Source of the DNA: Minisyncoccia bacterium
GTDB taxonomy: Bacteria; Patescibacteriota; Minisyncoccia; Phycocordibacterales; UBA9973
Direction of reading: 5' to 3'
Length of the DNA: 64,000 nt
NCBI GenBank assembly: GCA_038251535.1
Contig: JBBSBF010000001.1
Span: 2,232-66,231 of the forward strand
The notes beneath the pieces were generated by a model. That model was not told the origin of the DNA and did not search any database. It was given only the letters and a program-made list of their open reading frames with translations. The position numbers and the translations under genes are program-made. Below, one piece after another: positions 7,758 to 46,400 of the stretch. The first letter of the stretch is position 1. Every line of letters starts with the position of its first letter.

Positions 7758-9650
7758 TTAGGAAAGTGTTTCTAGAATTTTGGATAATTTGGCAGTTGCA
7801 ACACCGGTGACTGCATCAGCAGCGCCGTAGTAAATATATAGTGTATTACCTCGTTTGACCAAGCCACATGGGAACACAACGTTGTTAACGATACCGTTCA
7901 ATTCATAAAACGCCTTTGGTTCAAACAACGGCAGTGCAGTTCGTGCCAAAACAATGGTCGGATCATCGAGATCGAGGAGTGCGGCACCGACGCTGTAGAC
8001 ACTGGTCGGGGATACGCCGTGATACAAGAGCAACCAACCTTTTTTTGTCTTGATCGGCGGAGCACTGATACCAACTTTTCTCCCGTCCCACATTCCACGT
8101 CTCGGAGAAAGTACTTCGATACAGCGCGATACTTTTTCTTTTGAAAAATCAAATGTGGGGAGAACGTCTGCGCAGATGTTGCTATCGATACGGTGCAGCA
8201 CGACGTATCCTGCCTTTGTTTTTCCTGGAACGATGCACCCGTCTTTGTCATCAACTGATGGAGGAGTGATCAGTAATGGTTCTGACCAGTTTTTCCATTT
8301 TTTGTCGAGGAAGTCTGCTTTGGAAATAAAACTTGACGCAACTCGAGGTAGATTGCCATCATATGCAGTATAAAAGATATATATGAAATCTCCCATGACG
8401 ACAGCTCTCGGATCTTCACATCCTGAGTTTCCTGGGCGCTGTTTATTTTCATATATTCCCCGAGGTACGTAGATCGGCTTACTTCCTCGTTCGGAAATCG
8501 TAACGCCGTCTGTTGATGCGGCCCATCCAACAGTCGATGTATCATCGTCCGACATTGCTCGATAGAGTATGTAGATAGTACCAGCGAGTTCGATTGCTGC
8601 AGGGTTAAAGACTCCGTGTGCTTCCCACGCTACCTTTGGTCTTGGTGCGAGTATTGGATTGTTGGCAAATCGGGTAACGATGTCTTTCTGTCGGTACATT
8701 GCTCCAATGAGACTCTTTAGGTTTACACTTGCTCTACAGCAGTGGGTGTCTGATCCACCATAGTATATATCGAGCATATCACCGCGAATAATCGCACCTG
8801 AAGGAAAGATAATCCTTGATATGGTGCCGATTTTTTCATAAAAAAGTTCGGGTACCATAAACGGCTTGTTGGTGTTGCCGATGATTTTGCGAGGTTTCTT
8901 GAGATCAAGTAAAAGACTCTGGATACCAAATATTGGAGTACCGTTTCGGTATTCTTGGATATGCGAATAGATCAGGAGCCATCCTTCTTTGGTTTTGACC
9001 GGTGGACTGCCAATCTCTACTTGTTCGTTGTCGTTGTGAGGAATGACGAGTGTACATTCATCAACGTGTTCGTACCAGTTGTTCCAAAAATCCATATCCC
9101 AGAGTTGCTCGATTGTATCAAATTCTGCAACGGCTATCTTGGTATGTGGTCGATCGGTATCGACGGTAAGGAGTGCACAGATTTTTCCATTGATACGCTC
9201 AGGAAATAACGACATTGCCTTTGCGTTAAACGGTGTTACCAGATGTTTTTCTGACACAGTTTCCAAGTCGTCACTGATCGCGAGCGCTACCTTTATGTTG
9301 TCAGGACCAAAGGGAAAGTTAGAGATAGCGGTATAAAAGATGTAATATCTCCCTTCAAACTTTGTCACTCTCGGGTCTTCGCAGCCGTATCGTTCGTAGT
9401 CTTCGTCAGTGGTTATAAATGGTCGTCGATCGGTGAAATCAACACCGTTTGTGCTGACCGCCTTGCCGATGATTGATTTGGGGATGCGTGGTTCGGCCAA
9501 AAGCTCTGGATGCGACATCGCACGATACAACAAGTGAGTAGTTTTTCCAATTTTTATAGGACAGCCGTTAAATGTTGCTTCAGCCTCCCATGGATGTTCG
9601 GGGATAGGTGAGAGTATAGGATTGTGTGGGTATCGGTGGATGGTAAACAT
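7758..9650 (-). CDS. Tandem GH130-family glycoside phosphorylase (two GH130/DUF377 modules, mannoside-phosphorylase-like)
   Basis: Both halves carry FNPAAI/FNGCPI...LYRAMS...GCEDPR...YIFYTAYDG signatures; 630 aa is about twice a single GH130. Confidence 0.75.
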   Translation of the reverse strand: MFTIHRYPHNPILSPIPEHPWEAEATFNGCPIKIGKTTHLLYRAMSHPELLAEPRIPKSIIGKAVSTNGVDFTDRRPFITTDEDYERYGCEDPRVTKFEGRYYIFYTAISNFPFGPDNIKVALAISDDLETVSEKHLVTPFNAKAMSLFPERINGKICALLTVDTDRPHTKIAVAEFDTIEQLWDMDFWNNWYEHVDECTLVIPHNDNEQVEIGSPPVKTKEGWLLIYSHIQEYRNGTPIFGIQSLLLDLKKPRKIIGNTNKPFMVPELFYEKIGTISRIIFPSGAIIRGDMLDIYYGGSDTHCCRASVNLKSLIGAMYRQKDIVTRFANNPILAPRPKVAWEAHGVFNPAAIELAGTIYILYRAMSDDDTSTVGWAASTDGVTISERGSKPIYVPRGIYENKQRPGNSGCEDPRAVVMGDFIYIFYTAYDGNLPRVASSFISKADFLDKKWKNWSEPLLITPPSVDDKDGCIVPGKTKAGYVVLHRIDSNICADVLPTFDFSKEKVSRCIEVLSPRRGMWDGRKVGISAPPIKTKKGWLLLYHGVSPTSVYSVGAALLDLDDPTIVLARTALPLFEPKAFYELNGIVNNVVFPCGLVKRGNTLYIYYGAADAVTGVATAKLSKILETLS

Positions 9651-9673
9651 GCTGTTTGTTTTTTATTAAATAA

Positions 9674-10813
9674 TCATGCGCTCGTATCGCGGCCGTACTT
9701 CTTGAGCCACTTGAGGAGTTCGTCGAGTGGAGTGCGTGCGACGCATACATATTTGTCGCCACCACCATAGTACACGAACAAATCTGATTCATGAACGACT
9801 GCACCAGAAGCGTAGATCACTCCAGGCTTTGAATCATTTTCATAATGAAATTCTGGAGAAAGTATGGGGTGCGGAGAGCGATAGAGAATCTTTTGAGGAT
9901 TATCGATGTCGAGTATCATTGCACCAAGTTTGTATTTATTTGGATCGCGATGATCCATAGAGTGATACAACAGTAGCCATCCCAAACTGGTCTTGATCGG
10001 CGGAGCACCGGCACCACGGACCATCGAGTCCCAGTGCTCCTTTCGTCCGTAGTAGTTGTGAGCGCCATCGTGCGGGGGACGGCTTTTGATCGGAGAAAGT
10101 TCGAGGGTACGTACATCCTCGACATACTCCACGAGGATTTCTGGTGAGATGCCGTGAAGTATTGCAAATTTTCCATGTATTTTTTCTGGAAAGAGTGACC
10201 AGTTTTTATGTGGTTCGCCTTTTGGAGATATAAGGATAGGCTTTGCCCAATCCCATCGGTTTTGTTTCAAGTCATCGAGTGATATAGAAGTAAGAGCAAC
10301 TCGTATCGATTGCCATCCTTCAAATGCGACATAGGTCATGTACACTCGACCGTCTATCACTACCATTTTTGGATCTTCACATCCTGCCCAACCTCCACCG
10401 GAACCGTAGAGTACTTGGTCGTATGTTTGCTCAACAGAAGGGATTATTGAATTTTCAGGAGTTGCTTGATATACCGGATACGGAGAGCGCTCACTAAAGG
10501 TAACACCGTCCTGCGAAGTACTATGTCCGATCTGAGATGTACCACCGCGACCAATAGCACGATAAAAAAGGTGAATCATCCCATTGTCGTCTTTGACTGC
10601 GGCGGGATTAAAGGTACTTTCGTTTTCCCATTCGCGATGTTCTTGGGGACTGACTAGTGGGTTGCATACCTCACGAGTCAAATGATAAGGGGGTGCGTTT
10701 TTACTACTAGATTTGCGACGTATCCTGCGCAAGACATACGAAATCGCAAAAATGCAAAACAAAAATGCAAGCAGCACTAAAAAAAATATGTTTGAAAACA
10801 GGGATTCAATCAT
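9674..10813 (-). CDS. Membrane-anchored GH130-family glycoside phosphorylase
   Basis: N-terminal TM IFFLVLLAFLFCIFAISYVL followed by FNPAAVKDDNGMIHLFYRAIG...GCEDPKMV...YMTYVAFEG. Confidence 0.75.
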   Translation of the reverse strand: MIESLFSNIFFLVLLAFLFCIFAISYVLRRIRRKSSSKNAPPYHLTREVCNPLVSPQEHREWENESTFNPAAVKDDNGMIHLFYRAIGRGGTSQIGHSTSQDGVTFSERSPYPVYQATPENSIIPSVEQTYDQVLYGSGGGWAGCEDPKMVVIDGRVYMTYVAFEGWQSIRVALTSISLDDLKQNRWDWAKPILISPKGEPHKNWSLFPEKIHGKFAILHGISPEILVEYVEDVRTLELSPIKSRPPHDGAHNYYGRKEHWDSMVRGAGAPPIKTSLGWLLLYHSMDHRDPNKYKLGAMILDIDNPQKILYRSPHPILSPEFHYENDSKPGVIYASGAVVHESDLFVYYGGGDKYVCVARTPLDELLKWLKKYGRDTSA

Positions 10814-12996: not shown

Positions 12997-14688
12997 GTGG
13001 AGATGACTCAATCTCAAGCACTCGATATATTGAAAACAGGGGCAAATGTTTTTTTAACTGGAGAACCCGGGTCTGGCAAGACTCATACGGTCAACGTCTA
13101 TGTGGAGTATCTGCGCGCGCATGGGATCGAACCAGCGATCACTGCGTCGACCGGTATTGCTGCGACACACATTCATGGGCAGACGATTCATTCGTGGAGT
13201 GGTATCGGGATCAACCGTACACTTTCACCGTACGATATCGATCGTATTGCAACCACCGAACACGTCGTCAAACGAATACAAAAAACAAAAGCGCTCATTA
13301 TCGATGAGATCTCAATGATCGATGCTACCACACTTGATATGGTCGATACTATTCTTCGAGCGATCAAGCAAAACGATGAGCCATTTGGTGGTATACAGAT
13401 CGTGATGGTGGGGGATTTTTTTCAACTGCCACCGATCACACAAGTAGGGCAACAACCACACTTTGCTTTTGTAGCCTCAGTGTGGGGTCGGATGAAGCCA
13501 GTCATTTGTTATTTGACCGAACAACATCGCCAACGAGATACTGAGTTTCTCTCCCTTCTCTCTGCAATACGAAAAAATACCTATGGTCCAGAAGATCACC
13601 GTGTTATCGAACGCAAGCTCTATCAACCAACTGACGATGTCATCCATGACTTTACTGCAACACGATTGTTTTCTCACAATAAAAATGTCGACGCGATCAA
13701 CACCGTAGAGCTCAACAAACTACCGACTCTTTCAACGTGTTTTCTGATGCAAAGCAAGGGGAGGGAAACACTTGTCGCGCAATTAAAAAAGGGTTGTCTT
13801 TCTCCCGAAGAACTCGAACTAAAGATCGGTGCAGTGGTCATGTGTACAAAAAACAACCAACAAAAGGGCTATGCAAATGGGACTCTGGGCACGGTCCTTG
13901 GATTTGAGCCGGGAACGAAGTTTCCCATTATCGAAACAAAAGATGGCATACGTATCACGATCGAACCAGCAGAATGGATCATCGAAGAAAACGGTAAAAC
14001 AAAGGCAATGATTACGCAAGTCCCGCTTCGGCTCGCGTGGGCTATTACGATTCACAAAAGTCAGGGAATGAGTCTCGATGCGGCAGTGATGGATCTGCGA
14101 GATGTCTTTGAATACGGACAAGGATACGTTGCACTCTCGCGAGTCCGCTCACTCGACGGGCTACATATTTTGGGTTGGAATAGACAGGCGTTTTTGGTCC
14201 ACCCTCAGATTTTGGAAAAAGATCAGTATTTTATGCGTCAATCCGAATCAGCGGCTGCGATTTTTGGCGATATGTCGCAGATAGAACGAGAAAAGATGCA
14301 GCACAACTTTGTCCTCGCCTCAGGAGGAGTGGTAGATCGTGTTAAGAAGAAATCAACAAAGAAAGTTGCAGGGGATACGTTTCAAACAAGTCTTGCGCTT
14401 GTGTTACAAGGCAGGTCTATCGGAGAGATTGCAAAGGAGCGCAGCTTGGCCCCCGTGACCATCATTGGGCATATAGAAAAACTCGTACAACAACGTAGGT
14501 TGGGCGTTGCCGATATTATCTATCTTATCGATAAAAAAACGTTCAGTGGATTTGAAGATATCAAGGCGACATTTGTAAGTCTGGACACATCTAAACTTAC
14601 TCCGATACGTGAACATTACAATGGTAAGTTTACCTATGAACAATTGCGGTTCGCTCGGATGCTGATAGAGCTCGGTTATCCACACTAA
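12997..14688 (+). CDS. PIF1/RecD-like SF1 ATP-dependent DNA helicase with C-terminal HTH
   Basis: Walker A LTGEPGSGKTH; Walker B LIIDEISMID; GDFFQLPPI; UvrD_C_2-like ITIHKSQGMSLD; C-terminal helix-turn-helix region. Confidence 0.85.
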   Translation: MEMTQSQALDILKTGANVFLTGEPGSGKTHTVNVYVEYLRAHGIEPAITASTGIAATHIHGQTIHSWSGIGINRTLSPYDIDRIATTEHVVKRIQKTKALIIDEISMIDATTLDMVDTILRAIKQNDEPFGGIQIVMVGDFFQLPPITQVGQQPHFAFVASVWGRMKPVICYLTEQHRQRDTEFLSLLSAIRKNTYGPEDHRVIERKLYQPTDDVIHDFTATRLFSHNKNVDAINTVELNKLPTLSTCFLMQSKGRETLVAQLKKGCLSPEELELKIGAVVMCTKNNQQKGYANGTLGTVLGFEPGTKFPIIETKDGIRITIEPAEWIIEENGKTKAMITQVPLRLAWAITIHKSQGMSLDAAVMDLRDVFEYGQGYVALSRVRSLDGLHILGWNRQAFLVHPQILEKDQYFMRQSESAAAIFGDMSQIEREKMQHNFVLASGGVVDRVKKKSTKKVAGDTFQTSLALVLQGRSIGEIAKERSLAPVTIIGHIEKLVQQRRLGVADIIYLIDKKTFSGFEDIKATFVSLDTSKLTPIREHYNGKFTYEQLRFARMLIELGYPH

Positions 14689-14747
14689 TATTTTTATGGG
14701 TACGATTTTGTATTATACTGTAGGTATTATCAGTAAGAAGCATTTTG

Positions 14748-14810
14748 ATGGCAAAAGGAAACAACAGTCAGAAAAAGGAAGCAAAAAAACCGAAGAAGGC
14801 AAAGAAATAA
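14748..14810 (+). CDS. Very small Lys-rich peptide (20 aa), hypothetical
   Basis: MAKGNNSQKKEAKKPKKAKK, followed by its own hairpin terminator at 14841-14869. Confidence 0.25.
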   Translation: MAKGNNSQKKEAKKPKKAKK

Positions 14811-14840
14811 TTTGCCCGTTTCGACAAACCGATATTAAAG

Positions 14841-14869
14841 AAAGACCGTAACGAGCGGTCTTTCTTTTT
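14841..14869 (+). terminator. Rho-independent terminator
   Basis: aaagaccg-taacgag-cggtctttctttttg. Confidence 0.6.
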
Positions 14870-14924
14870 GCGTAATATATGGTAGAGTAATTTCAAACAT
14901 TCACAATTTAAAAAGGAGGAAAAA

Positions 14925-15599
14925 ATGAGTGAACTGACTACGCTCACTAAAGAAGATTACATATTCGCAGATGAGTTGCTTAAGCAAATAGGATATTCAA
15001 TTATCAAGAAGAAAGACAAGAGTCAAGATTTTTTCAGACTAAAACTTGAAGCGCCACGTCGCATTACAGGAAGCGAAATTGGTTTCTATTATTCCAACAA
15101 GGAATACACGGCAAAATTTTGGACATCATTTTTATTTGAGGAAGAGAAATTTCGCGATAAAGGAAAAGATGCATTTTGGCCCATCATTACGCAAGGTGAT
15201 GCGTTAGTATATAGTGCTAAACCAATATATCGTAACGATAGAGAAGCATTACTAAAAGCTCTACGGTATGCGTGGATCAATAAATGGAAAATAGATAATA
15301 TTCCACTGTGTCCATATTGTAATGCTCGAATGATTATCTTTCGAAAGAAAGACACACGATGTTATATGTATGCGTGTAAAAAAATCGAAAGTCACCCTAA
15401 TGGTAAATGGCGGTTTAGAAGTTGGGATTATGGACTTAAAGAAAATGCACAAGCGTTTGTACAAATCAGACGTGATGCGACTGTCAAGTATAAGCAGCGT
15501 ATGAAAGCGCTGGGTAAAAATCCTATTCCTGCAGCAGTACTACGAAAAAGATGGAAGATTGGAAACAATAGTAATTTTATCGAGAATCGTTTTAGGTAA
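14925..15599 (+). CDS. Hypothetical protein with C-terminal CxxC...CxxC zinc-ribbon
   Basis: CPYCNARMIIFRKKDTRCYMYACKK; SD-like aaaggagg upstream; terminator hairpin aagccttgtttgaacagggctttttt at 15605-15630. Confidence 0.5.
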   Translation: MSELTTLTKEDYIFADELLKQIGYSIIKKKDKSQDFFRLKLEAPRRITGSEIGFYYSNKEYTAKFWTSFLFEEEKFRDKGKDAFWPIITQGDALVYSAKPIYRNDREALLKALRYAWINKWKIDNIPLCPYCNARMIIFRKKDTRCYMYACKKIESHPNGKWRFRSWDYGLKENAQAFVQIRRDATVKYKQRMKALGKNPIPAAVLRKRWKIGNNSNFIENRFR

Positions 15600-15657
15600 T
15601 TTCTAAGCCTTGTTTGAACAGGGCTTTTTTTATGTACAATTTGCTATACTAAACCAT

Positions 15658-17562
15658 ATGACCGTTCCGTATGATCCCGAACACATCACGTATTTTGCTG
15701 AAACTGATGCACGCAATCAGCGGATTAAATTTGGCATCAAAAGTCGTGATCGTACACGCCACATGTACGTCATCGGTAAAAGTGGCGTAGGGAAGTCGAC
15801 ACTTTTAGAAAACATGGCGATCCAAGACATCCAGCACGGAGAAGGTGTTGCAGTCCTGGATCCTCACGGAAGCTTTGCTGAAAAGATGCTCGAGTATATC
15901 CCCGAACACCGCATCAAAGACGTCGTGTATTTTGCTCCGTTTGATACGGACAACCCGATATCGTTCAACGTACTCGAAGACGTGGGTGCAGATCGTCGAC
16001 ACCTCGTCGTTTCGGGACTGATGAGTACGTTTAAAAAGATTTGGGTTGATGCATGGAGTGCGCGTATGGAGTACATCCTGACCAACACACTCCTCGCACT
16101 TCTCGAGTATCCAGGGGCAACACTTCTCGGAGTGAACCGCATGCTTTCTGAAAAAGGATTCCGGAAAAAAGTGGTAGAGAACATCACCGATGCGGCGGTC
16201 AAGGCGTTTTGGACTGAAGAATTTGCAAACTATACGGAACGAATGGCAGCAGAGGCAGTGCCCGCAATCCAAAACAAGATTGGGCAGTTCACCGCAAATC
16301 CACTCGTGCGCAACATCATCGGCCAATCCAAATCAACCTTTGATCTACGCAAGGTAATGGATGAACAAAAGATACTGATCATCAACCTCTCCAAAGGACG
16401 CATCGGAGATACCAACACGAGTCTTCTCGGTTCGATGATCATTACCAAGATATATCTTGCAGCCATGAGTCGTGCAGAGCTTTCACAGAGTCGTATGGGA
16501 GGACTACCCAACTTTTATTTCTACGTTGATGAATTTCAATCGTTTGCAAACGAGACGTTTGCCGATATCCTTGCAGAAGCTCGGAAATACAAACTTGCGC
16601 TTATCATTGCGCATCAGTATGTAGCACAAATGGAGGAAAAGGTGCGTGATGCAGTATTTGGAAACGTTGGTACGACGGTGTCGTTTCGCGTGGGACCACT
16701 CGATGCCGAGCTCTTGGAAAAAGTCTTTGCACCACAGTTTACGCAAAACGACATCATCAACCTCGGGATGGCTGAGATTTATCTTTCACTCATGATCAAC
16801 GACATCGGGTCACCACCGTTTTCTGCTCGGACTCTCGCACCCTTGGCGCGTCCTGCTATAACATTTCGCAATGACGCAATCGAATCATCGCGTAGTCAGT
16901 ACGCATTTCCAAAAGAAACAGTAGAAAAAAACATCGCAGAATGGTTTGCCGCAGGTAGCGAGCCGGTGGAGGATAAAACACAAAAGAAAACTCGTTTTGT
17001 AGAGGGTGATCGATCAGTGCAAGCATTTTCTCCGCGACCTTCGTACCCAGAGATACGGACCGCTTCAACAGGTCCTGGACAGACAAAGACCCCGCACACA
17101 TTTCCACCTAAAAAAGTAACACCAGCAACCCATAAACCATTTGCCAAAGCATTGATAAAGCCCGTAGTCTCGCAGGTATCCACAGATTCTCCGGCTCCGC
17201 AATCTGATGTAGTACAAAAAGAAGATAACCCACAGCCGTCTTTGACACTAAAGCATCTCCTGGATTCTCTCGATACTACCGCTCCACCGATAGTAATGAA
17301 AGATAAACCAGAATCCCCATTTGTCGGTGAGAAGCCACTTCGCGAAAGTGTTTCGCCAGTCAAACACGCCGAACGCGGTCCTACAGAGAAAAATCGCGAC
17401 CTTCTCAAAATGGCGCTACAAAAGGCAACTCAGCAACAACCATTGCGGACAGAAAAAACAGAAACTGAAGCAGTGAAAACGGTGTCTGCTGACAGCACAA
17501 CATTAACGGCAAACCACACGAGCGAAGTTTCTTCCGATGCCCTAAGGCAACTATTGGAATAA
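15658..17562 (+). CDS. P-loop ATPase of the VirD4/TraG/HerA-FtsK (DUF87-like) superfamily with a long disordered P/T/S-rich C-terminal tail
   Basis: Walker A VIGKSGVGKSTLLEN; Walker B-like FYFYVDEFQSF; LALIIAHQYVAQ motif; no N-terminal TM; last ~200 aa low-complexity. Confidence 0.6.
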   Translation: MTVPYDPEHITYFAETDARNQRIKFGIKSRDRTRHMYVIGKSGVGKSTLLENMAIQDIQHGEGVAVLDPHGSFAEKMLEYIPEHRIKDVVYFAPFDTDNPISFNVLEDVGADRRHLVVSGLMSTFKKIWVDAWSARMEYILTNTLLALLEYPGATLLGVNRMLSEKGFRKKVVENITDAAVKAFWTEEFANYTERMAAEAVPAIQNKIGQFTANPLVRNIIGQSKSTFDLRKVMDEQKILIINLSKGRIGDTNTSLLGSMIITKIYLAAMSRAELSQSRMGGLPNFYFYVDEFQSFANETFADILAEARKYKLALIIAHQYVAQMEEKVRDAVFGNVGTTVSFRVGPLDAELLEKVFAPQFTQNDIINLGMAEIYLSLMINDIGSPPFSARTLAPLARPAITFRNDAIESSRSQYAFPKETVEKNIAEWFAAGSEPVEDKTQKKTRFVEGDRSVQAFSPRPSYPEIRTASTGPGQTKTPHTFPPKKVTPATHKPFAKALIKPVVSQVSTDSPAPQSDVVQKEDNPQPSLTLKHLLDSLDTTAPPIVMKDKPESPFVGEKPLRESVSPVKHAERGPTEKNRDLLKMALQKATQQQPLRTEKTETEAVKTVSADSTTLTANHTSEVSSDALRQLLE

Positions 17563-17563
17563 T

Positions 17564-18871
17564 ATGAAGTACAGTATCCTCATTCTAATCTTTTGTTGGT
17601 TATTGAGTGCATCGTATGCGAATGCTCAAATACACATCACCGAGATAGCATGGATGGGTACTGCCAACAGTCAGTATTCAGAATGGATAGAGCTATACAA
17701 TGACGCGACAACTTCGGTAAATCTTGCAGGTTGGAAGCTGTACGAATCAAGCAGTACGCTCATCATCGCTCTTTCCAAAACGATTGCAGCGCAAGGGTAT
17801 TTGTTAGTTGAACGAACGACGGCAAGTGCTCCCGATGCAGTACCAGGAGTTGATGATGAGGCAGGTTCTTTTGGTGGTGGAGGACTTGCCAATACTGGTG
17901 AGAAACTCATTCTCAAAGATGCAAATGGGAGTACAGTCGAATCACTGGACTTTAGTAGTGGGTGGCCAGCCGGAGATGCAACAACAAAACAAACGATGCA
18001 GTGGACGGGGAGTGATTGGATTACTGCCGACCCAACCCCAAAGGCACCGACAGCTACCTCACAAGGCACCACTGAGGATACTGTACCGACCGTCGAAGAT
18101 TCCGATCCCATCCCAAAAGTATCTCCCAACAAGCCGTACATTGCATTTGAAATACCACCTGTAGTGTATAGCGGTACCGCACATGAGTACAACGCTCATC
18201 CAGTTTATGAATACAACTATCAGTTTGATACAGGTAACATGTACTGGAACATGGGGGACGCGACGATGTATCGACAAAGCGCAATCGCGCCCGTCGTGCA
18301 CACGTATCAGTTTCCTGGAACGTACACGATCTCGTACTCGTTCGCAGATCCTGAAAACCGCCAACTTCCACTCACTGGCACCAAAAAAATAACCGTCGTA
18401 GCTCCCACGTTATCACTCACCACGCTCAATCACAAAGCACTCGTCATACAAAACAATGCACCACAGCCGATCGATCTAACGGGATGGAAACTCAATACGC
18501 CTGATAAGGTCATAGCGATACCTGACCAAACGATCATCGCCGAAGGAGCAACTATCGCATTACCATTTTCTATACTTTCGATTACGAGCGATACGTATTT
18601 TTCTATCACTGATCCTTCAGGTGTACTCGTGGCAACTACAAAGCCTGGGCAGGTACCAGTTGTAACATCGCGATCTTCAGCGCCTACCACTGTCCTGGCT
18701 GACGAATCAACCCTTACTCCTTCGGCTGAAATTACAGAAAATCCGACAACACCTTCACCAGAAAAAGCTCCAACAAACAAGCGCACCAGGACATATATTC
18801 TTGGTGCGCTTGGTATATTCGTTATAGCCTTGTCGTTACTCCTTGAGCGTTTTATGGCTCGACAGGAGTAG
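17564..18871 (+). CDS. Secreted lamin-tail-domain (LTD) protein with C-terminal membrane anchor
   Basis: Signal peptide; LTD signature ITEIAWMGTANSQYSEWIELYN...GWKL repeated (second LTD near residue 290); C-terminal TM ILGALGIFVIALSLLL. Confidence 0.65.
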   Translation: MKYSILILIFCWLLSASYANAQIHITEIAWMGTANSQYSEWIELYNDATTSVNLAGWKLYESSSTLIIALSKTIAAQGYLLVERTTASAPDAVPGVDDEAGSFGGGGLANTGEKLILKDANGSTVESLDFSSGWPAGDATTKQTMQWTGSDWITADPTPKAPTATSQGTTEDTVPTVEDSDPIPKVSPNKPYIAFEIPPVVYSGTAHEYNAHPVYEYNYQFDTGNMYWNMGDATMYRQSAIAPVVHTYQFPGTYTISYSFADPENRQLPLTGTKKITVVAPTLSLTTLNHKALVIQNNAPQPIDLTGWKLNTPDKVIAIPDQTIIAEGATIALPFSILSITSDTYFSITDPSGVLVATTKPGQVPVVTSRSSAPTTVLADESTLTPSAEITENPTTPSPEKAPTNKRTRTYILGALGIFVIALSLLLERFMARQE

Positions 18872-19604
18872 CAGTTGTAGTCTTGGTTTCTGGGGAAACA
18901 ATGGGGGTAATACTATCGGGTATTGAAGTAGCTTCAACTTCCGTCGTGATTGCATCAACTTCTTTTGAGATGATTATTACTTCTTGGTCAGAAACTTTTT
19001 GAATGGTTGCGTCAACTGCGATGAGTGCGGCGTCGTTGTTTGATCCGTCACTGTTTTCGGTATTTTCGATGACGAGTTTATTTGCTTTGAGCGTTTCCTC
19101 GAGTGATGTAGTTGCACTGAGTGCTGCATTAGGAGCAACGGCACTGAGGGTATTGAGGTCAACTGAAAGGTTTTTGATGTGTGTATCGAGTGCTTTTTGT
19201 ACTGTTGCTTGCTTTGCCTTGGTTAAGGTCTTTGACTCTGCCAATGTTTTTATTTCGTTGACTCGATTTTCTACACGCTTTGCTCCGTAGGCAACTTTTT
19301 CTTGTGGAGTGTTCTGAAAGAAACCTTTTACTTCTTCGTTTACATTGAGTTTGAATGCGTAGAGCGGATCTCCCGGGAGGGCATTGTCAGCAACGGCAGA
19401 GATAGTCCCACCGATAAATATGAAAAACAAAAAACTCGAAAGTGCAATGCGCAAGCCGTGGTAGATGCCGCGTTGCAACAATGAATGACGATATACACTT
19501 TCTTGCTGCATGATGTGCGCAAGGTGCGCGCGTATATGACCACGCTCACTTTCGGAAAGCTTGATATCTTTTACTTGCACAAGTTGTTCAAAATTATATT
19601 TCAT
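18852..19604 (-). CDS. Putative membrane anti-sigma factor
   Basis: Immediately downstream of, and overlapping, the ECF sigma gene; single TM LSSFLFFIFIGGTIS; extracytoplasmic helical domain. Confidence 0.5.
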   Translation of the reverse strand: MKYNFEQLVQVKDIKLSESERGHIRAHLAHIMQQESVYRHSLLQRGIYHGLRIALSSFLFFIFIGGTISAVADNALPGDPLYAFKLNVNEEVKGFFQNTPQEKVAYGAKRVENRVNEIKTLAESKTLTKAKQATVQKALDTHIKNLSVDLNTLSAVAPNAALSATTSLEETLKANKLVIENTENSDGSNNDAALIAVDATIQKVSDQEVIIISKEVDAITTEVEATSIPDSITPIVSPETKTTTATPVEP

Positions 19605-20157
19605 TATATTGTTTTCGTAATTTTTTGATGATCCGGTGTATCTGCACAGTCATAGCATTTACGCTTTTGTTATACAGGAGGGCGATTTCTTCGATAGGTT
19701 TTTCTTCGGTATAGCGCAAAAAGATGATCTGGTAGCTTTCGTCATCGAGGATATCGAGGATTTTGCGGATGTCTTGAATATCATCGTTGCGCAAAATCTC
19801 GTCAGTATCTTTGTTGGACTCCGGGTCATATCCTGCCTCCATCAGCATGTCGAGAGAGCCAGCTTTTGACTTTTTGTAATAATCAATCAGCGCATTTTTG
19901 GCAGCTCTATAAAGAAACGCTTCCGGATACTCGATTTCTTTGCCGGACGAAAGATATACCCACGTTTTTGTGAATGTGTCTTGGGTAATATCAACCGCAA
20001 TAGCGCGAATACCGACGCGAAAGTATATAAAACGGAATATTGCATCTTGGTATTTCTCGACCATTGCCATGAAAACCCCTTCAATATCAGGGCCCTTTTG
20101 TATTGGATCAATCTTATCTTGTGACGATTCAGGAACTTCCACCTTACAAGTATACAC
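19594..20157 (-). CDS. ECF-type RNA polymerase sigma-70 factor
   Basis: Region 2 (FRFIYFRV) and region 4 FLRYTEEKPIEEIALLYNKSVNAMTVQIHRIIKKLR. Confidence 0.8.
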   Translation of the reverse strand: MYTCKVEVPESSQDKIDPIQKGPDIEGVFMAMVEKYQDAIFRFIYFRVGIRAIAVDITQDTFTKTWVYLSSGKEIEYPEAFLYRAAKNALIDYYKKSKAGSLDMLMEAGYDPESNKDTDEILRNDDIQDIRKILDILDDESYQIIFLRYTEEKPIEEIALLYNKSVNAMTVQIHRIIKKLRKQYNEI

Positions 20158-21528: not shown

Positions 21529-22605
21529 ATGAAAGTACAGTTATTTAATAAACCAAAGAAGCAAATACTTTTTGTCCGTTATTTCTTATTATGTTTCTAT
21601 CTACATCAAAAGAAAATAAATACGGAAGGAAAAAAAGCATGGCTACGGGCCATCTTTCTTCAAATCCAATACGGATTGGATATTGTCATTTTTTCATCTA
21701 CCTCCTATATTTCACACAAAACTATAACAAAAGGTAGAAAATGGGAATTTCCGAATGATCTTAATGTAGTTAGTATAGAAAAAAGAAAAGCTAATTATTG
21801 TATGCACTTTTCTTTTAACGAAAATCCGAAAGAGATACTCAATCAAGGAACCGTGTTTTATGTAAAAAAAGGACACTGGTTTATAAAAAGGTTCCCAATC
21901 GAAGAGTTTTTTCGCTCAAACAATATATTTACGTTTGAGACCAGGCCGGTAATTTCAAAAATGAGAGCACTTCCGTTAAGAGGAAGTATTGGTCCAGAAC
22001 AAAAACTAGTTATTGATTATCCAAAGGAAATTGCTGCATTAGAACTTGAGATTAAGAGATTGGAGATTAACAAGGATGAGCGCTTAAAACAATCACCACT
22101 TTCTGATGAAATAGTTGCGTTGAATGATGAGATACAAAAAGCAAAAGAACACCTCTTGTTTTTTGTAAAAAATGGCCATGTTGCATATGAATCAGTCCCT
22201 GCTTTACTTGCGCACTCAAAAATTGAGGATGCTATAGCGCATGAATATGCCAAGAAAATACGCAATCTTGATCTGAGCATTGCTCTAACAGACGCGTCAG
22301 AAATAGTCCCCACTAAGAAGGATCAACTATTTATCACCCAAACAAAAGATTTGGAGGAGCTGGTTAGAAAGAACGATGCTATGCCAGCTATTCACGTTTC
22401 AAAAAAAATAGACACTGATTTCCAGGCTTTATGCAAAAATGCACAGCAGCGCATAGAGAAAAAAGATATGTCATCCGCGAAACTATTGTTTGTTTTTTTG
22501 AAAACCAGGAAAGAAAAAGATTGGGTTTCGTTTAAGGAAAGTGTAATAATTCCCATAAACCACAATTTTTTTCGCCCCCACCGTTATGAGAGGAAAAGTT
22601 CGTAA
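21529..22605 (+). CDS. Hypothetical protein (coiled-coil region); start uncertain
   Basis: Long intact ORF, no recognisable motif; terminator at 22611. Confidence 0.4.
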   Translation: MKVQLFNKPKKQILFVRYFLLCFYLHQKKINTEGKKAWLRAIFLQIQYGLDIVIFSSTSYISHKTITKGRKWEFPNDLNVVSIEKRKANYCMHFSFNENPKEILNQGTVFYVKKGHWFIKRFPIEEFFRSNNIFTFETRPVISKMRALPLRGSIGPEQKLVIDYPKEIAALELEIKRLEINKDERLKQSPLSDEIVALNDEIQKAKEHLLFFVKNGHVAYESVPALLAHSKIEDAIAHEYAKKIRNLDLSIALTDASEIVPTKKDQLFITQTKDLEELVRKNDAMPAIHVSKKIDTDFQALCKNAQQRIEKKDMSSAKLLFVFLKTRKEKDWVSFKESVIIPINHNFFRPHRYERKSS

Positions 22606-22610
22606 CCTAG

Positions 22611-22636
22611 AGCCGCATTCACTGCGGCTTTTTTAT
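22611..22636 (+). terminator. Rho-independent terminator
   Basis: agccgca-ttcact-gcggcttttttatt. Confidence 0.7.
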
Positions 22637-22850
22637 TGTTTAATTTTTCGTAACACCATGGGTATCTTTTTAAAATCATTCATACAATGTTCGCGTAGTC
22701 GACCGTTGTACAGAGCTGCAGCAGGGAACTAACGAAGATGTATCCAATTGAATGCTGCCTTTTTTTCAGTACGGTATATAGCTCAATAAATCGAAGTTTT
22801 CCACAGTCATTATTGTAGACACACAAAAAGTATTTTATAATTTAGTAATA

Positions 22851-25800
22851 ATGAAAAAATTGAAAAGGTACGGTGTACTTTTTATTTTCTTCGCCTCACT
22901 ATCTCTTTGCCATACAAGTTCTGTTTTTGCTGCGACAATTATACAAGATGTCATTACGACAGACACAATGTGGACTAAGGACAATAGCCCCTACGTTATT
23001 TCTGGCATCGTTGACGTAAATCCAGGCGCGACGTTGTCGATACAAGCGGGAACAATTATTAAATTTGAAGATAATGCAACTATTGAAATCTTTGGTGCAA
23101 TGGCCATCATGGGTACTCAGACTGAACCAGTCTACGCTACATCAATCGCTGACGATTCTATTGGTGGAGATACAGACAATAATGGCATAACAGACCCTGC
23201 TAACATTACAAATTCATTTGTTAACTTTGCCTTTTTGTCGCCACAAGGTGTACAGAAAATGGACTATCTACACTTTAAATATGGGCAAGTTTATATTGAT
23301 AGTGGAAATCTAGATATTGCTTACTCACTATTTGAACATAGCGCTATTTCTGCAGATACATCTACTATACATATCAGCGCTACTTCTTTCTTGGATCCAG
23401 ATTTAATAGCTTTAGACGCAAACAATAATACCACGATAGTCGCTGATACAATTACTATACAAAATGGCAAAACTGATGGTGTAAATATATATGATAATAG
23501 TAGTCTTGTAATGAGTAATTCAACTATTGATACACTCTACGGTAGTGCGATTGTTGGATTTAACACATCGGCAATCACCATAAAAAATACAAATATTGAT
23601 TCAGCTGATATAGGTATTGAAATATTTAACCACACCTCTCTTGTTGCCGACAACACAACTATCGCTCATATGCAGTATGCAGGTGTAAGTGTCTATGAGA
23701 CATCAACTGCAAAGATTACAAAGAGTTTAATTACTGATACGTATGATGGTGTAGAAATATTTAACAATTCAATTGTCAATTTAGACCACGATAAAATACA
23801 AGACTCCTTAGATACGGGAATCATCAGTTTTGGCAATTATGGCAGCAATAGTATTGATATATCGAACACTGATATTTCGCAAAACTTTGTTGGTATCTAT
23901 TCCATAAATTTTACCCACATAAATACTTTTATCGATAATAGTATTTATAACAATGTTAATGGAGCTCAAACATTTGAAACAAATACTATCGATATGAAAA
24001 ATAATTGGTGGGGGGGTGTAACAGGACCAACACATCCATCCAATCTTCTCGGCACGGGGGATGTTGTCAGTGATTACATTTTATTTACCCCATGGCTAAC
24101 GATAGACCCTATTAACCCTACAGCCGTTATTCCTTTACAGTATTATGCCAAACTAGATGCTTCAGGCGTTATCAATCTCTATGAATTGCCAGATACAACA
24201 AGTCTGCTTGTGAAGACACTGCCACATGATTGGATTGTCAAAGTGCTTTCTGTTGATCCCGTGATAGCCAATGGGTCACTGTGGTACAAAGTAGAAGATC
24301 CTACAGATGGTAGCCAGATGTGGACAATTGCTGCACCAGCCTCAATCTCTACGCCTATTTATCTTCCGTATAATGAAAATAACCAAGGGGTATACCAGCA
24401 GTCTGGAGTAGATATACTGACAACCAAAGCTTCTCGCGCACAGTCGATCGTAAATGCAATTGATCATTATTATGGCAATACGAGTACTACTCCTTCAATA
24501 GATAGTTCCGATGATCACTCGCTCAAGATTTCAACACTCGTTCAAGCTGGATTTCCCAAAGAATTAATCATGGCAATTGCAGCGCAGGAAAGCGGTGGAA
24601 TTAATTTTAATAATGAGTATGTAAGTTTTGATTACGGGCATGGTGTAATGCAAGTTACACCAGATGCATATAAAAATGAAAAACCGGGTGGAAAATTTAC
24701 TAACAACAAAGAAGATAGTAGAGGCGTACTAAGTGATATACATTTAAAAAAGTGTGATGAAGTAAATTCAGATAATTATAAAAAATGTTATAAAAACACA
24801 GAAAGTTTTAATAATAAATTAAAATCATATGATAATTATCAACACGACCCAGTAAATTTTGTATACAAGCAATATACCAACACTACTCAATCAATCTTTG
24901 CAAATATCAAAGACGGGTTAGGTATTCTCAGCAGCAAATACAGACATGTCTTTGTTCACCCGTGCTCCAGTAGTGTCACTTATGGGGGAGAAGTATTTAG
25001 TTGTACAGATATTGATATGATAAAGGCAGTGTGGGGATACAACGGAGCGGTGACGACGCCGGCAAACAATTATTTGAAATTAATATCCCAAAAGCTCACA
25101 AACCTAAATGCATATTTTGCAAATCACTCATATCCCAACAGCGATCACCTGATCCAAAAGCTTGCGATCGCTAACGACAATAGAATAGAGCTCAAGGCGC
25201 ACAGCCCTATTGCTATTGAGGCGATAGATTCCCAAGGTCGTGTCACGGGATTAAACAATGCCGGTGATATGTTAAGTGATATTCCCAATTCTTATTATGA
25301 TCCTGAAGACGAGACGGCGTTGATCCTTTTCCCAGAGGATACCTATACGTATCAAGTCACTGGTGACGGTACGGGTCCGAGTTATGGATTTGATATTACT
25401 ATAGAGCGTGATAGTGCAAGTCCGCTCGTATTTCAAGCGAGCGACATTCCCATTGCTGAAGGAGAGATACATACGTTTCATATTGATGAAGCAGTGCTTG
25501 CTGCGGGAGGAAATGGCACCACGATCGATATAGACTCCGATGGCGATGGCACTCCCGAAAAGACTATTACTACCGGGGCGTTACTCAACGATACGACGCC
25601 TCCGTTGATCGACGAGACGTTGATCGCCCCAAACTATATCCTTGGCGATAAGATAAATCTCAAAAAAATAATTAGTGATAACCAAACCAAAAAAAAGAAT
25701 ATTGTCCTGTCAGCGACATGGGATATGGTGCCACTTGCCCTGACAAACAATACGATTATCCTCCCTTCAATCGGATCACACTCATTGACAATAACTGCGA

Positions 25801-26201
25801 CAGATCAGGTAGGTAATACAACAACATTAATCAAATCAATTCTGGTCACTTATATATTCAAAGGTTTTAAACCAGTGTCATTTGATACTATTTCCTTCGA
25901 TCAAAACAATAAAGTCCCTATTAGATTTAGCTTGAAATCAAAAAACGGAATAGTCATTCCACTACTTCATCCAACCCTGTCTATCGTTCGATCTGCGGAT
26001 GGGTATCATTTGCCAGTCAACCCTGATACCTTTGACGAAGATCCCAATTGCGATTCTGATGACGATTGTTTCATCAACCATCACAATAGATATAAATATG
26101 TTGTTCCGGGCAATTCGTTTCCGTCTCTTGGACAATGGATAATTACAGTTGGATTAGATGATGGGAAGAGTTATACTGCTACTGTGAATATAATTTCTTA
26201 A
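22851..26201 (+). CDS. Giant (1116 aa) secreted surface protein: parallel beta-helix repeats plus an internal lytic-transglycosylase (SLT/lysozyme-like) motif
   Basis: Signal peptide MKKLKRYGVLFIFFASLSLCHTSSVFA; repeated N/T/I-rich ~22-aa beta-helix (PbH1-like) units; IAAQESGGINFNNEYVSFDYGHGVMQVTPDAY matches the SLT E-S...G-(L/V)-M-Q signature. Confidence 0.7.
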   Translation: MKKLKRYGVLFIFFASLSLCHTSSVFAATIIQDVITTDTMWTKDNSPYVISGIVDVNPGATLSIQAGTIIKFEDNATIEIFGAMAIMGTQTEPVYATSIADDSIGGDTDNNGITDPANITNSFVNFAFLSPQGVQKMDYLHFKYGQVYIDSGNLDIAYSLFEHSAISADTSTIHISATSFLDPDLIALDANNNTTIVADTITIQNGKTDGVNIYDNSSLVMSNSTIDTLYGSAIVGFNTSAITIKNTNIDSADIGIEIFNHTSLVADNTTIAHMQYAGVSVYETSTAKITKSLITDTYDGVEIFNNSIVNLDHDKIQDSLDTGIISFGNYGSNSIDISNTDISQNFVGIYSINFTHINTFIDNSIYNNVNGAQTFETNTIDMKNNWWGGVTGPTHPSNLLGTGDVVSDYILFTPWLTIDPINPTAVIPLQYYAKLDASGVINLYELPDTTSLLVKTLPHDWIVKVLSVDPVIANGSLWYKVEDPTDGSQMWTIAAPASISTPIYLPYNENNQGVYQQSGVDILTTKASRAQSIVNAIDHYYGNTSTTPSIDSSDDHSLKISTLVQAGFPKELIMAIAAQESGGINFNNEYVSFDYGHGVMQVTPDAYKNEKPGGKFTNNKEDSRGVLSDIHLKKCDEVNSDNYKKCYKNTESFNNKLKSYDNYQHDPVNFVYKQYTNTTQSIFANIKDGLGILSSKYRHVFVHPCSSSVTYGGEVFSCTDIDMIKAVWGYNGAVTTPANNYLKLISQKLTNLNAYFANHSYPNSDHLIQKLAIANDNRIELKAHSPIAIEAIDSQGRVTGLNNAGDMLSDIPNSYYDPEDETALILFPEDTYTYQVTGDGTGPSYGFDITIERDSASPLVFQASDIPIAEGEIHTFHIDEAVLAAGGNGTTIDIDSDGDGTPEKTITTGALLNDTTPPLIDETLIAPNYILGDKINLKKIISDNQTKKKNIVLSATWDMVPLALTNNTIILPSIGSHSLTITATDQVGNTTTLIKSILVTYIFKGFKPVSFDTISFDQNNKVPIRFSLKSKNGIVIPLLHPTLSIVRSADGYHLPVNPDTFDEDPNCDSDDDCFINHHNRYKYVVPGNSFPSLGQWIITVGLDDGKSYTATVNIIS

Positions 26202-26204: not shown

Positions 26205-26846
26205 ATGAAACCGAAGTACAAGACAAATTATTACATGTTGCTGTTAGTCACAATAACGGGCGCTATGTTTGTATATTTTATAATGCAAAAGATATATTTT
26301 AATACGCAAAGTAATGATGTTGTCTACGACAACATAAATATTATAAAAACTGTTGTTGTGGGTAGGATTACCAAAGGCAGTGTCGGAAACTTATCATTTT
26401 TCTATCCAAATAATTGGCATTTAACAACTGAAAATAACAGCATTGGACTTAAACCTGAATTTAAAATAAGTAATTTAAATACTGATATTTATAGCTTGGA
26501 TTTTATTGTAACTTACTTGAAAGACGATAATAAAGAAAGATTAACGACATCAGATTGGATTCAAAAAAACACAGACAGTGGAACAGGAGATCAAAAAGGA
26601 AAAGATATTGTAGTTGGAGATATTCGAATGTATCATGAATTTTATAATGACCGAACGAGCGATGAGCTCGGTTATTTTTCTCCAGTTGTACTTACAATAA
26701 CTCATGGAACCGACGTGTATGAAATATTTATGCACGAAATACCCACTGAACTAGACCCTGATCTTTCTCCTACAGATATCCAAGCCGCAAAAGAATATGA
26801 ACAAACAGTTAATCAAATTCTCCAGAGTTTTAAATTTTCTGACTAA
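26205..26846 (+). CDS. Hypothetical membrane-anchored protein
   Basis: N-terminal TM YYMLLLVTITGAMFVYFIM; no known domain. Confidence 0.45.
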   Translation: MKPKYKTNYYMLLLVTITGAMFVYFIMQKIYFNTQSNDVVYDNINIIKTVVVGRITKGSVGNLSFFYPNNWHLTTENNSIGLKPEFKISNLNTDIYSLDFIVTYLKDDNKERLTTSDWIQKNTDSGTGDQKGKDIVVGDIRMYHEFYNDRTSDELGYFSPVVLTITHGTDVYEIFMHEIPTELDPDLSPTDIQAAKEYEQTVNQILQSFKFSD

Positions 26847-31813: not shown

Positions 31814-32686
31814 CTATTTCCCATATTTCTTAAACCACGTACGCTGACGTTTGGCATAGTTCCAGATTTCTTTTTCTAGTTTCTCAAGCATATCTGATTT
31901 GGAAAGTTTATCCTGAGCTGTGTCGAAGGGTTTATCCTGAGCTGTGTCGAAGGGTTTATTCTGTAAGTACTGCGCGATGTATCGGTACTCAAGTCCCAAC
32001 GCTTCGAGGCGTTTCCATGAGACTCCACTGTCATGAAGTCTCTGTACTTCGCGTACCATACCCGACTTCATTCGTTTGAACAGTCGATCGTGAATGCGTT
32101 GCTTCAACACGTCGTCAGGGAAGTCGAGGTAGTGCCACTCGACGACGTACTTTGAGATACGGGTGACTTTTGGTACAGAGCCGAGAGATTTGGCTATCTC
32201 GATTGCACGAATCAGTCTGACTTTGTTTTTGGTATCGATAGTTTCAAATCGTTTTGGATCGAGTACTCCGAGTTGTTGAGCCAGCTGCTCTGTCGAAAAC
32301 TTCTCAAGCTTTTTGCGTAGTGCAGTGTTTGGTTTAACGACCGGGAAATTTTGTCCGTATACGACGCTATCGATATAGAACCCAGTCCCGCCGCATATGA
32401 TCGGTACCTTGTTGCGCTTCAAGATATCTCTGATCGCCTTGTCGGCAAGCGTTTGGTACTGTGTTACTGAACATGTGCGTTTGGGACTTACGACGTCCAG
32501 GAGGTGATGCCGAACACCACGCATTTCTTTCTTTGTAATTTTTCCACTTCCAATATCGAGCCCACGGTAGACTTGGCGGGAATCAGCAGAAACAATCTCG
32601 CCACCAATTTGTTTTGCTCGCGTTACTGCATAGTCGGACTTACCAGTAGCAGTTGGACCGCAGATGACGATAATTTTTTCTTTCAT
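31814..32686 (-). CDS. miaA: tRNA dimethylallyltransferase MiaA
   Basis: P-loop IIVICGPTATGKSDYAV; start at MKEKIIV; the longer ORF to 32839 would overlap tRNA-Leu. Contains an in-frame 24-bp tandem duplication. Confidence 0.85.
   Translation of the reverse strand: MKEKIIVICGPTATGKSDYAVTRAKQIGGEIVSADSRQVYRGLDIGSGKITKKEMRGVRHHLLDVVSPKRTCSVTQYQTLADKAIRDILKRNKVPIICGGTGFYIDSVVYGQNFPVVKPNTALRKKLEKFSTEQLAQQLGVLDPKRFETIDTKNKVRLIRAIEIAKSLGSVPKVTRISKYVVEWHYLDFPDDVLKQRIHDRLFKRMKSGMVREVQRLHDSGVSWKRLEALGLEYRYIAQYLQNKPFDTAQDKPFDTAQDKLSKSDMLEKLEKEIWNYAKRQRTWFKKYGK
31906..31953. repeat. 24-bp perfect tandem duplication inside miaA (encodes KPFDTAQD twice)
   Basis: tttatcctgagctgtgtcgaaggg x2. Confidence 0.8.
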
Positions 32687-32688
32687 TG

Positions 32689-32771
32689 TGCCGGAGAGAG
32701 GACTTGAACCTCCACACCCTTGCGAGTATTCGATTTTGAGTCGAACGCGTCTACCATTCCGCCACACCGGC
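32689..32771 (-). tRNA. tRNA-Leu (anticodon CAA), long variable arm
   Basis: Reverse complement gccggtg-tggcggaatggtag...tcga-ctCAAaa-tcga...ggaggTTCAAGTcctct-ctccggc-a; 83 nt. Confidence 0.8.
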
Positions 32772-32942
32772 AATGTACAAAATATACTGCGTATTTTGTA
32801 TCCCTTTCGGGACCATTGCCGGTGTGTCGGCCACATCATTCCATTCTGATATAAAGCAAAGCAGTTTGCTTTATATCCACACCTGCAATTTCCTTATTCT
32901 ACAGTGCATTTTGGGGATTGCAAGAAAGAGTTTTGGGGATAC

Positions 32943-45959: not shown

Positions 45960-46009
45960 AAACAAAAAACTGTATTTAATAAATACAGTTTTAAAATAGT
46001 TTTTTAATT

Positions 46010-46354: not shown

Positions 46355-46400
46355 TGTATGGTAGTTTTAATTTAAATGGATATTATAATATTTCCTTTAT

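Follow-up and report, generated by a model that had tools for sequence, protein, structure and literature searches.

The gene at positions 22851-26201 (plus strand) of a 64,000-nucleotide stretch from a Minisyncoccia bacterium (GenBank assembly GCA_038251535.1, contig JBBSBF010000001.1; the whole stretch is called the window below) very probably codes for an exported peptidoglycan glycosidase of the GH23 type, targeted by a bacterial SH3 (SH3b) domain. The catalytic fold and the general idea of an attack on host envelopes were already known. The novelty lies in a distinct, unannotated GH23 subfamily, nearly restricted to Patescibacteria, that combines a core of SH3b domain, GH23 domain and putative calcium-binding sandwich with variable heads and a linked partner gene.

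The open reading frame (ORF) was confirmed. A first-pass annotation, made by a model from the DNA letters, had placed a 1116-aa ORF at 22851-26201, and its coordinates, ATG start and length were all verified. A full-length AlphaFold (AF2) model was built on 30 homologues and had a mean predicted local distance difference test (pLDDT) score of 87.5. The order of domains was signal peptide (residues 1-27), β-helix (28 to ∼424), SH3b (428-500), GH23/SLT (509-776) and three β-sandwiches. The features of the gene and of its downstream neighbor are as follows.

22851-22931, plus strand: predicted signal peptide, residues 1-27 (MKKLKR / YGVLFIFFASLSL / CHTSSVFA, cleaved before the next A), of Sec/signal peptidase I (SPI) type, as judged by sequence, hydrophobicity and model
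22932-24122, plus strand: right-handed parallel β-helix, residues 28-424 (Pfam, AF2, Foldseek)
24132-24350, plus strand: SH3b domain, residues 428-500 (SH3_3/SH3_4 in orthologues, AF2)
24375-25178, plus strand: divergent GH23/SLT-type lysozyme-like domain of 270 aa, residues 509-776
24588-24590, plus strand: codon of Glu580, the predicted catalytic general acid (conservation, MltE alignment)
25179-25586, plus strand: β-sandwich 1, residues 777-912, with the EF-hand-like loop IDIDSDGDGTPEK (AF2 strands)
25587-26201, plus strand: β-sandwiches 2 and 3, residues 913-1008 and 1009-1116, plus the stop codon (AF2, Foldseek)
26205-26846, plus strand: partner gene u213 (213 aa), whose start lies 3 nt beyond the stop codon of the target, with an N-terminal transmembrane (TM) anchor and an outside domain of ∼170 aa of no recognized fold

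A Divergent GH23 Domain with an Invariant Glutamate

The first-pass annotation had proposed a lytic transglycosylase motif at about residue 575, and the motif, AAQESGGINFNNEYVSFDYGHGVMQVTPDAY, is present at residues 577-607. The lysozyme-like fold that it implied, α-helical and with a substrate groove, was predicted with high confidence when the domain alone was modeled with AlphaFold (pLDDT 90.9, predicted template modeling score 0.90). Fold comparison paired the model with lytic transglycosylases of GH23 and with g-type lysozyme, and the matches further included GH19 chitinases and a GH124 cellulase. The motifs of the domain follow each other in the order E580-S, G598-V-M-Q601, N685-I-K-D-G..L693, W728-G-Y-N-G732 and Y741, and all four motifs of the family-1 lytic transglycosylase signature were found in canonical order across the family.

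Conservation was counted over 152 family proteins. The predicted catalytic Glu580, whose conservation the first-pass annotation had left to be checked, is present in 151 of 151 aligned members; it lies at the end of a helix and is followed by Ser or Thr in 120 of 151. In motif II, G598 was found in 151/152, M600 in 118/152 and Q601 in 153/153. Motif III and the tyrosine that follows it were similarly preserved (Y730 140/149, N731 142/149, G732 134/149, Y741 142/145), and Y675 was invariant (151/151). Three further residues, N588 (151/152), D594 (147/150) and D688 (148/151), are near-invariant and specific to the family. Positions E580, G598, Q601, Y675, N685, D688, L693 and Y741 were invariant in a 32-sequence alignment.

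Membership in the SLT family is transitive, through the family, because the target scores below the Pfam cut-off and homologues match the profile on their own. On the whole target, Pfam SLT (PF01464) matched residues 565-612 with E 0.0065 and 16.5 bits, below the 21.3-bit cut-off, and the domain alone reached 19.6 bits, likewise below this gathering threshold. Thirteen of 32 diverse homologous domains matched Pfam SLT (E ≤ 0.01, best 1.2e-8), and two matched Lysozyme_like. A search of the whole protein against PDB sequences gave noise only, and a 4-sequence domain profile gave no match there. With the 32-sequence profile, the best match in the PDB was E. coli MltE/EmtA, where Glu580 aligns with Glu64 (numbering of chain 3t36). 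Profile positions ∼90-147 are missing in many members, whose short forms read as textbook SLT domains; the Cys-containing stretch at ∼606-670 is therefore a variable insertion. Median identity of the GH23 domain to 29 homologues, the set used for all module comparisons below, was 48.3%, rising to 65% around motifs I-II.

Asp97 of goose lysozyme seems to have no equivalent in the family, where the position two residues beyond the motif-II Gln is Thr603 in 143/153 members. Asp86 of goose lysozyme lies 6 residues before the equivalent Gly, and Asp594 only 4 before Gly598. Because of these mismatches hydrolase and lytic transglycosylase chemistry are not assignable, and the predicted class is GH23/SLT-type, within which the sequence does not separate a lytic transglycosylase (1,6-anhydro-MurNAc product) from a lysozyme (hydrolyzed end). 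Documented are the fold, the motifs with their conservation, the order of domains, the taxonomic restriction and the conserved partner gene; peptidoglycan is the presumptive substrate and export the presumptive fate of the protein.

Modules Flanking the Catalytic Domain

The conserved core of the protein consists of SH3b, GH23 and β-sandwich 1 (45-48% identity), and the flanking modules diverge fast or are swapped. The SH3b domain was missed in the first-pass annotation, and residues 509-565 proved to be the helical start of the lysozyme-like domain. Among 20 orthologous SH3b segments, 16 matched Pfam SH3_3 (PF08239; best E 7.8e-9) and 11 matched SH3_4. The segment of the target itself gave no SH3_3 match at E ≤ 0.1 and is 25-51% identical to the orthologous segments. 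In the AF2 model it forms a small β-barrel (strands within 431-496) that adjoins the lysozyme-like domain. Its median identity was 45.2%, and it is presumed to be a cell-wall-binding module.

β-Sandwich 1 always accompanies the catalytic domain, as judged from the consensus of close and diverse members, and has a median identity of 45.2%. The DxDxDG motif noted in the first pass was found at residues 892-904 (nt 25524-25562), where conservation of D895, D899 and G900 reaches at least 90% in 30 sequences. This sandwich matched no family in Pfam or the PDB, and matches to EF-hand_5 were weak (3/13 at E 0.036), so that calcium binding by the loop is a prediction from its sequence pattern. The first-pass annotation had assigned the C-terminal ∼400 aa to Ig-like or β-sandwich domains; three β-sandwich domains were indeed found by AF2 and Foldseek, and they span 340 aa. 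In the Foldseek search the C-terminal sandwiches matched tandem Ig arrays. Sandwiches 2 and 3 were often absent from homologues (coverage 0.55 and 0.74, identity 22-33%), and sandwich 2 is missing in the homologues P0002-P0004, as seen from alignment gaps.

The β-helix proposed in the first pass was recovered as a fold by Pfam and AF2; its extent was not, since the helix ends at ∼424, about 130 residues short of the proposed ∼550. Pfam Beta_helix (PF13229) matched with E 2.8e-11 and 43.7 bits (cut-off 25.9), and NosD matched weakly (E 0.0029). In the AF2 model the module is made of all-β coils with pLDDT mostly >90, and Foldseek matched it to AlgG (target-normalized TM-score 0.44-0.49) and to phage tailspikes. 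The periodicity of ∼22 residues was only weak in the sequence: identity was best at offsets 45 and 22, and offset 15 alone gave an autocorrelation peak above z 2.5. With a median identity of 25.7%, the β-helix is the fastest-evolving large module. A catalytic β-helix was rejected, as no invariant acidic or basic residues were found within 110-380 in 30 homologues; lacking such a cluster, the module is read as a stalk or binding module.

The β-helix module also occurs in large proteins from other sources (P0005-P0050), some of them named Bacteroidota. There it is joined to LCAT/PGAP1-type lipases, M10 and subtilase proteases, an M23 peptidase and cohesin/dockerin modules. Some of these proteins carry PF18962, presumably the C-terminal sorting domain of the type IX secretion system. 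The β-helix seems to serve secreted enzymes in general as a carrier. The guanine-plus-cytosine (GC) content dips to 0.353 at 22001-24000, over the part of the target coding for the β-helix, compared with ∼0.43 elsewhere, which may simply reflect Asn/Ile/Thr-rich coding.

Predicted Signal Peptide and Expression Context

The first-pass annotation had also called a cleavable signal peptide, and the N terminus does resemble a Sec signal. Four of its first 6 residues are Lys or Arg, the hydrophobic core spans 13 residues (Kyte-Doolittle 12-mer maximum 2.6), and V-F-A occupies -3/-1 before the Ala at the predicted cleavage site. In the AF2 model, a helix of low confidence (low pLDDT) covers residues 6-19, and the folded part begins at residue 28. 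A hydrophobic N-terminal segment was present in 100 of the 139 family members that start with Met. From these sequence features we infer export of the protein via Sec. Four cysteines (635, 646, 705 and 718) are invariant in 30 close homologues, which fits an exported protein.

Anchoring as a lipoprotein or by sortase was rejected on the sequence. No canonical lipobox is present: L-S-L-C20 is non-canonical, and Cys20 is absent in P0002-P0004. No LPXTG motif was seen when the C terminus was read by eye. The C terminus of the target also has no TM anchor; a C-terminal TM helix is present in some relatives, where it would display the enzyme on the surface of the producer.

The target is preceded at 21529-22605 (plus strand) by a Lys-rich ORF of 358 aa, which ends in a strong terminator-like hairpin. 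Neither Pfam nor NCBIfam gave a significant match to this ORF, and related loci have no counterpart of it. The hairpin was located by a consensus scan.

22609-22631, plus strand: terminator-like hairpin, 9-pair stem followed by a T run, 3' of the upstream ORF

Since the hairpin separates the upstream gene from the target, the target has its own upstream region of 245 nt. The promoter scan was uninformative (19 sites compared with 18.9 expected).

Distribution and Variation of the Family

By word-indexed search, three full-length homologues were found (36-40% identity), and the other matches shared only the β-helix. The same type of search with the domain profile returned 2 proteins, a number set by the limit of the index. 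An exhaustive search of 1.84 billion representatives with a profile of residues 521-790 yielded 273 proteins with E ≤ 1e-3, of which 114 reached E ≤ 1e-30, counted as cluster representatives at 50% identity. The domain is thus a real family of divergent GH23 domains of ∼270 aa. The named members encountered in the searches are labeled "right-handed parallel beta-helix repeat-containing protein" or hypothetical, so that public records leave the catalytic domain without annotation.

Among 185,579 species genomes (one genome per species), 38 loci matched far into the domain, which is a lower bound because the genome scan was pattern-limited. All but a few of them are Patescibacteria, and loci of the family were found in metagenome-assembled genomes (MAGs) of Nomurabacteria, Paceibacterota, Yonathbacteria, Azambacteria and Adlerbacteria. 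The oddities outside Patescibacteria were a contig binned as Sedimentisphaerales and Planctomycetota, a Bipolaricaulota MAG and a "Gammaproteobacteria" MAG. The first of these is a single contig of 37,613 bp deposited in two MAGs, Sedimentisphaerales and Planctomycetota (loci L037 and L038), and the double deposit suggests binning ambiguity rather than a true occurrence outside the candidate phyla radiation (CPR). Bacillaceae and a few other genomes matched motifs I-II only, as ordinary SLT domains would. An origin from phage, with the domain as an endolysin, was rejected: the best hit of the fold search in BFVD had E 0.07, and 2.9 million viral contigs contained one partial match at the motif level.

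The heads of the proteins vary. In 44 distant members, the N-terminal part was NosD/Beta_helix (9-10 members), Laminin_G_3, RCC1 or PQQ propellers, cadherin-like, Big or Lcl_C. Two modules, SH3_3 (7 members) and PG_binding_1 (4 members), recur in this set. The best homologue of the target is ∼40% identical, compared with relatives of 84-85% identity for the seryl-tRNA synthetase (SerRS) of the same window. This SerRS is 84% identical to a "Candidatus Pacebacteria bacterium" protein and 75% identical to "Candidatus Nomurabacteria" proteins. Together with the family loci in Nomurabacteria and Paceibacterota MAGs, these identities mark the organism as a member of the Paceibacteria/CPR.

A Membrane-anchored Partner Encoded Directly Downstream

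The first-pass annotation missed a conserved gene, u213, directly downstream of the enzyme gene. Homologues of its product were found directly 3' of the enzyme gene in 7 loci (L006, L007, L008, L009, L010, L012 and L016). Enzyme and partner gene form a conserved two-gene cassette in the closest clade. The NCBI copy gives the partner a length of 193 aa, the Logan copy one of 213 aa. Its identity to the aligned homologues is just 19-28%, and it had no match in Pfam, NCBIfam, PADLOC or PDB profiles, including known immunity and inhibitor families. In most other loci, a tightly coupled, N-anchored protein of 170-280 aa takes the same position, and ten further downstream proteins had no relevant match. 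Beyond the partner gene, a convergent uracil-DNA glycosylase (UDG) gene lies on the other strand.

In four distant loci (L019, L021, L023 and L024), a prepilin-like gene, whose product has a GFTLIELL-type N terminus, directly follows the GH23 homologue in place of one for an N-anchored protein. For some lineages, these genes may suggest a connection with type IV pili.

Candidate Roles of the Enzyme

A proposed mechanism starts with cleavage of the signal peptide, after which SH3b would dock the protein on peptidoglycan. The GH23/SLT-type domain would then cut the bond between N-acetylmuramic acid (MurNAc) and N-acetylglucosamine (GlcNAc), with Glu580 as general acid and with the calcium-loop sandwich 1 supporting the neighboring catalytic domain. 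The fast-evolving β-helix and the C-terminal Ig-like domains might serve as an extended stalk or as a scaffold for surface recognition. At the contact site, the enzyme could open or thin the peptidoglycan of a host or partner cell, and the membrane-anchored protein, seated on the surface of the producer, might be its cognate protector or regulator.

We tentatively favor, at somewhat less than even confidence, a Sec-exported GH23 enzyme that cleaves glycan strands of a wall other than the cell's own. The leaning toward a foreign wall comes from the conserved core flanked by diverging or swapped adhesin-type modules, from the fast divergence relative to SerRS and the patchy distribution, from the tightly coupled, fast-evolving, membrane-anchored gene downstream, and from the C-terminal TM anchor of some relatives. 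It also draws on a review in which surface lytic transglycosylases of Patescibacteria are cited as proposed to compromise host envelopes (PMC11665869).

Several observations pull in the opposite direction. The window also encodes wall machinery of the organism itself, an S11 DD-carboxypeptidase (55153-56013) and FtsQ (42002-42829), so a self-directed substrate exists. Hydrolases bearing SH3b domains are also typical autolysins, and the membrane partner could equally activate or regulate an autolysin. The score of the target below the Pfam SLT gathering threshold counts here as well. When the partner clusters of distant loci were compared with hhalign, similarity was confined to the TM segment. 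Methanogenic archaea, to our knowledge, have no murein. The route of export is Sec only, and no secretion-marker domain of toxin type turned up in the Pfam scan. Finally, some Paceibacteria have been reported on methanogenic archaea (PMC10936435).

These same hosts, the Sec route without a dedicated delivery system, and the peptidoglycan synthesis indicated by the two wall proteins of the window all count for a self-directed autolysin. Such an enzyme would remodel the organism's own peptidoglycan in growth, daughter-cell separation or turnover; SH3b would bind that wall, and the partner would tether or regulate the enzyme. The combination of SH3b or PG_binding_1 with a glycosidase, seen in family members, is a standard layout of autolysins. 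SLT-type autolysins are found in monoderms, for example IsaA/SceD in S. aureus and CwlQ in B. subtilis. However, the distribution is patchy and low-copy, divergence is fast compared with housekeeping genes, and an autolysin does not need a large β-helix or swapped N-terminal modules that do not bind the wall. None of this is decisive, and an autolysin is a serious contender, nearly as likely as the action on a foreign wall.

A VirB1-like hydrolase that makes space for a type IV secretion system (T4SS) or type IV pili by cutting the producer's own wall locally is improbable. The feature that brings it into question is a coupling protein gene 5 kb upstream of the target.

15610-17562, plus strand: VirD4/TraG-like T4SS coupling protein

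The reported association of VirB1 homologues with virB4 in Paceibacteria (PMC12102498) and the prepilin-like gene after the GH23 homologue in 4 distant loci also speak for a space-making role. Against it, the scanned ORFs of the window yielded neither VirB4 nor any other channel component, the coupling protein and all other upstream neighbors are absent beside homologues in 60 related loci, a second CHAP or NlpC-P60 domain is lacking (no Pfam match at E ≤ 1), and a protein of 1116 aa with adhesin-like modules is unlike the compact VirB1 proteins.

Equally hard to credit is an action on another β-1,4 glycan (chitin, a chitosan-like/deacetylated glycan, pseudomurein or a host capsule), or a non-catalytic binding module in an adhesin: GH19 chitinases and a GH124 cellulase are among the fold matches, and the family-specific Asn588, Asp594 and Asp688 together with the ∼65-residue insertion could reshape the substrate groove, but every top match, in structure as in sequence, is an enzyme of peptidoglycan, the accompanying SH3b and PG_binding_1 modules suggest the same substrate, and the invariant Glu and full SLT motif set argue for catalysis.

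If the favored action on a foreign wall is carried one step further, enzyme and partner might form a Patescibacteria-specific, Sec-dependent "wall-opener plus self-protection" cassette, in which the enzyme, carried on exchangeable adhesin-like modules (β-helix, LamG, RCC1, cadherin-like), cuts the host wall at the contact site, the partner shields the producer's own wall, and the pair acts as a determinant of host range. We consider this unlikely. The frame of a small-genome episymbiont is reasonable at the phylum level (Patescibacteria/CPR). A large part of bacterial diversity belongs to the Patescibacteria, which are believed to live attached to other cells, and the means by which they breach or tap a partner's envelope are largely unknown (PMC11665869). 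The family offers a concrete, cloneable candidate for remodeling of the host wall, with a clean catalytic-dead control (E580Q). Should the protein be an ordinary autolysin, the value would be limited to a better annotation of CPR cell-wall metabolism.

Genomic Neighborhood

The window is chromosomal and contains housekeeping genes, for GltX, TopA, DprA, ParB, RelA/SpoT, SerS, FtsQ, Dus, a DnaX-like protein and BipA, as well as six tRNAs. Twelve other neighbors in the window were tested, including PIF1, the 224-aa ORF, the VirD4-like coupling protein, the LTD protein, the extracytoplasmic function (ECF) sigma/DUF5667 pair, the 358-aa ORF, UDG and YchF. None of them recurs beside homologues in the Patescibacteria loci among the 60 related loci. 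The sole neighbor with any match was Pyr_redox, in two unrelated Clostridia loci. A T4SS linkage as a conserved feature was rejected, as no neighbor recurs in Patescibacteria loci and VirB4 is absent from the scanned window ORFs.

The coupling protein gene is one of four consecutive genes at 12997-18871 (plus strand), which encode a PIF1-like helicase with a C-terminal HTH_40, a Cys-rich protein of 224 aa, the VirD4/TraG-like protein and a secreted protein with a Lamin-tail domain (LTD) and a PKD-like domain. This segment looks like a remnant or satellite of a conjugative/T4SS element; no VirB4 was present among the scanned ORFs of the 64-kb window. At 18852-20157 (minus strand), a gene for an ECF-type sigma factor (Sigma70_r2/r4) shares a few bases with one for a DUF5667 protein, as in a sigma/anti-sigma pair. 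The two genes are located between the LTD protein gene and a gene for a pyridine-nucleotide-disulfide oxidoreductase.

Two adjacent GH130 genes (β-1,4-mannooligosaccharide phosphorylase family) occupy 7758-10813 (minus strand) beside a HAD/phosphomannomutase-like gene, and one of them is of double length (630 aa). This is a small mannoside-utilization cluster in a reduced genome. The ORF for MiaA, the isopentenyl pyrophosphate (IPP) transferase (31814-32839, minus strand), overlaps tRNA-Leu (32688-32771, minus strand) at its 5' end. Given this overlap and a Pfam match that starts at residue 88, MiaA probably has its true start codon downstream of the tRNA. GC content is 0.344-0.366 at 46001-50000, compared with ∼0.43 elsewhere.

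Comparison with Known Systems

Compared with the family-1 lytic transglycosylases (E. coli MltE/EmtA, Slt70 and MltC; P. aeruginosa MltF and Slt), about half of the 270-aa domain superposes. The target adds an N-terminal helical extension, a C-terminal helix and, between motif II and the N-I-K-D-G helix, a Cys-containing insertion of ∼65 residues. Its flanking modules also differ, and the organism that carries it is a CPR bacterium of monoderm-like type, in contrast to diderms, whose enzymes are periplasmic or lipoproteins. Goose-type lysozyme and Bdellovibrio DslA (Bd0314) are much smaller than the target, which is multidomain.

With PrgK (pCF10), TraG (pIP501) and CwlT (ICEBs1), the target shares the SLT-type domain and a monoderm-type envelope, and its window includes a T4SS coupling gene. 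In contrast to these proteins, the target has no CHAP or NlpC-P60 domain and lies outside a T4SS cluster in a neighborhood that is not conserved. Lysostaphin-type bacteriocins and phage endolysins resemble the family in that a catalytic domain adjoins SH3b and modules are shuffled across the family; the target differs in being a GH23 enzyme, not M23, amidase or GH25, and in its extra β-helix and Ig-like modules.

The comparison with effector-immunity pairs such as Tse3-Tsi3 concerns the two-gene arrangement. The target is predicted to use Sec only, with no secretion-marker domain in the Pfam scan. An immunity function of the partner is pure inference, as adjacency alone does not show immunity. 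By analogy, such a cassette might be a secretion-system-independent counterpart of effector-immunity pairs, a likeness that we regard as a long shot.

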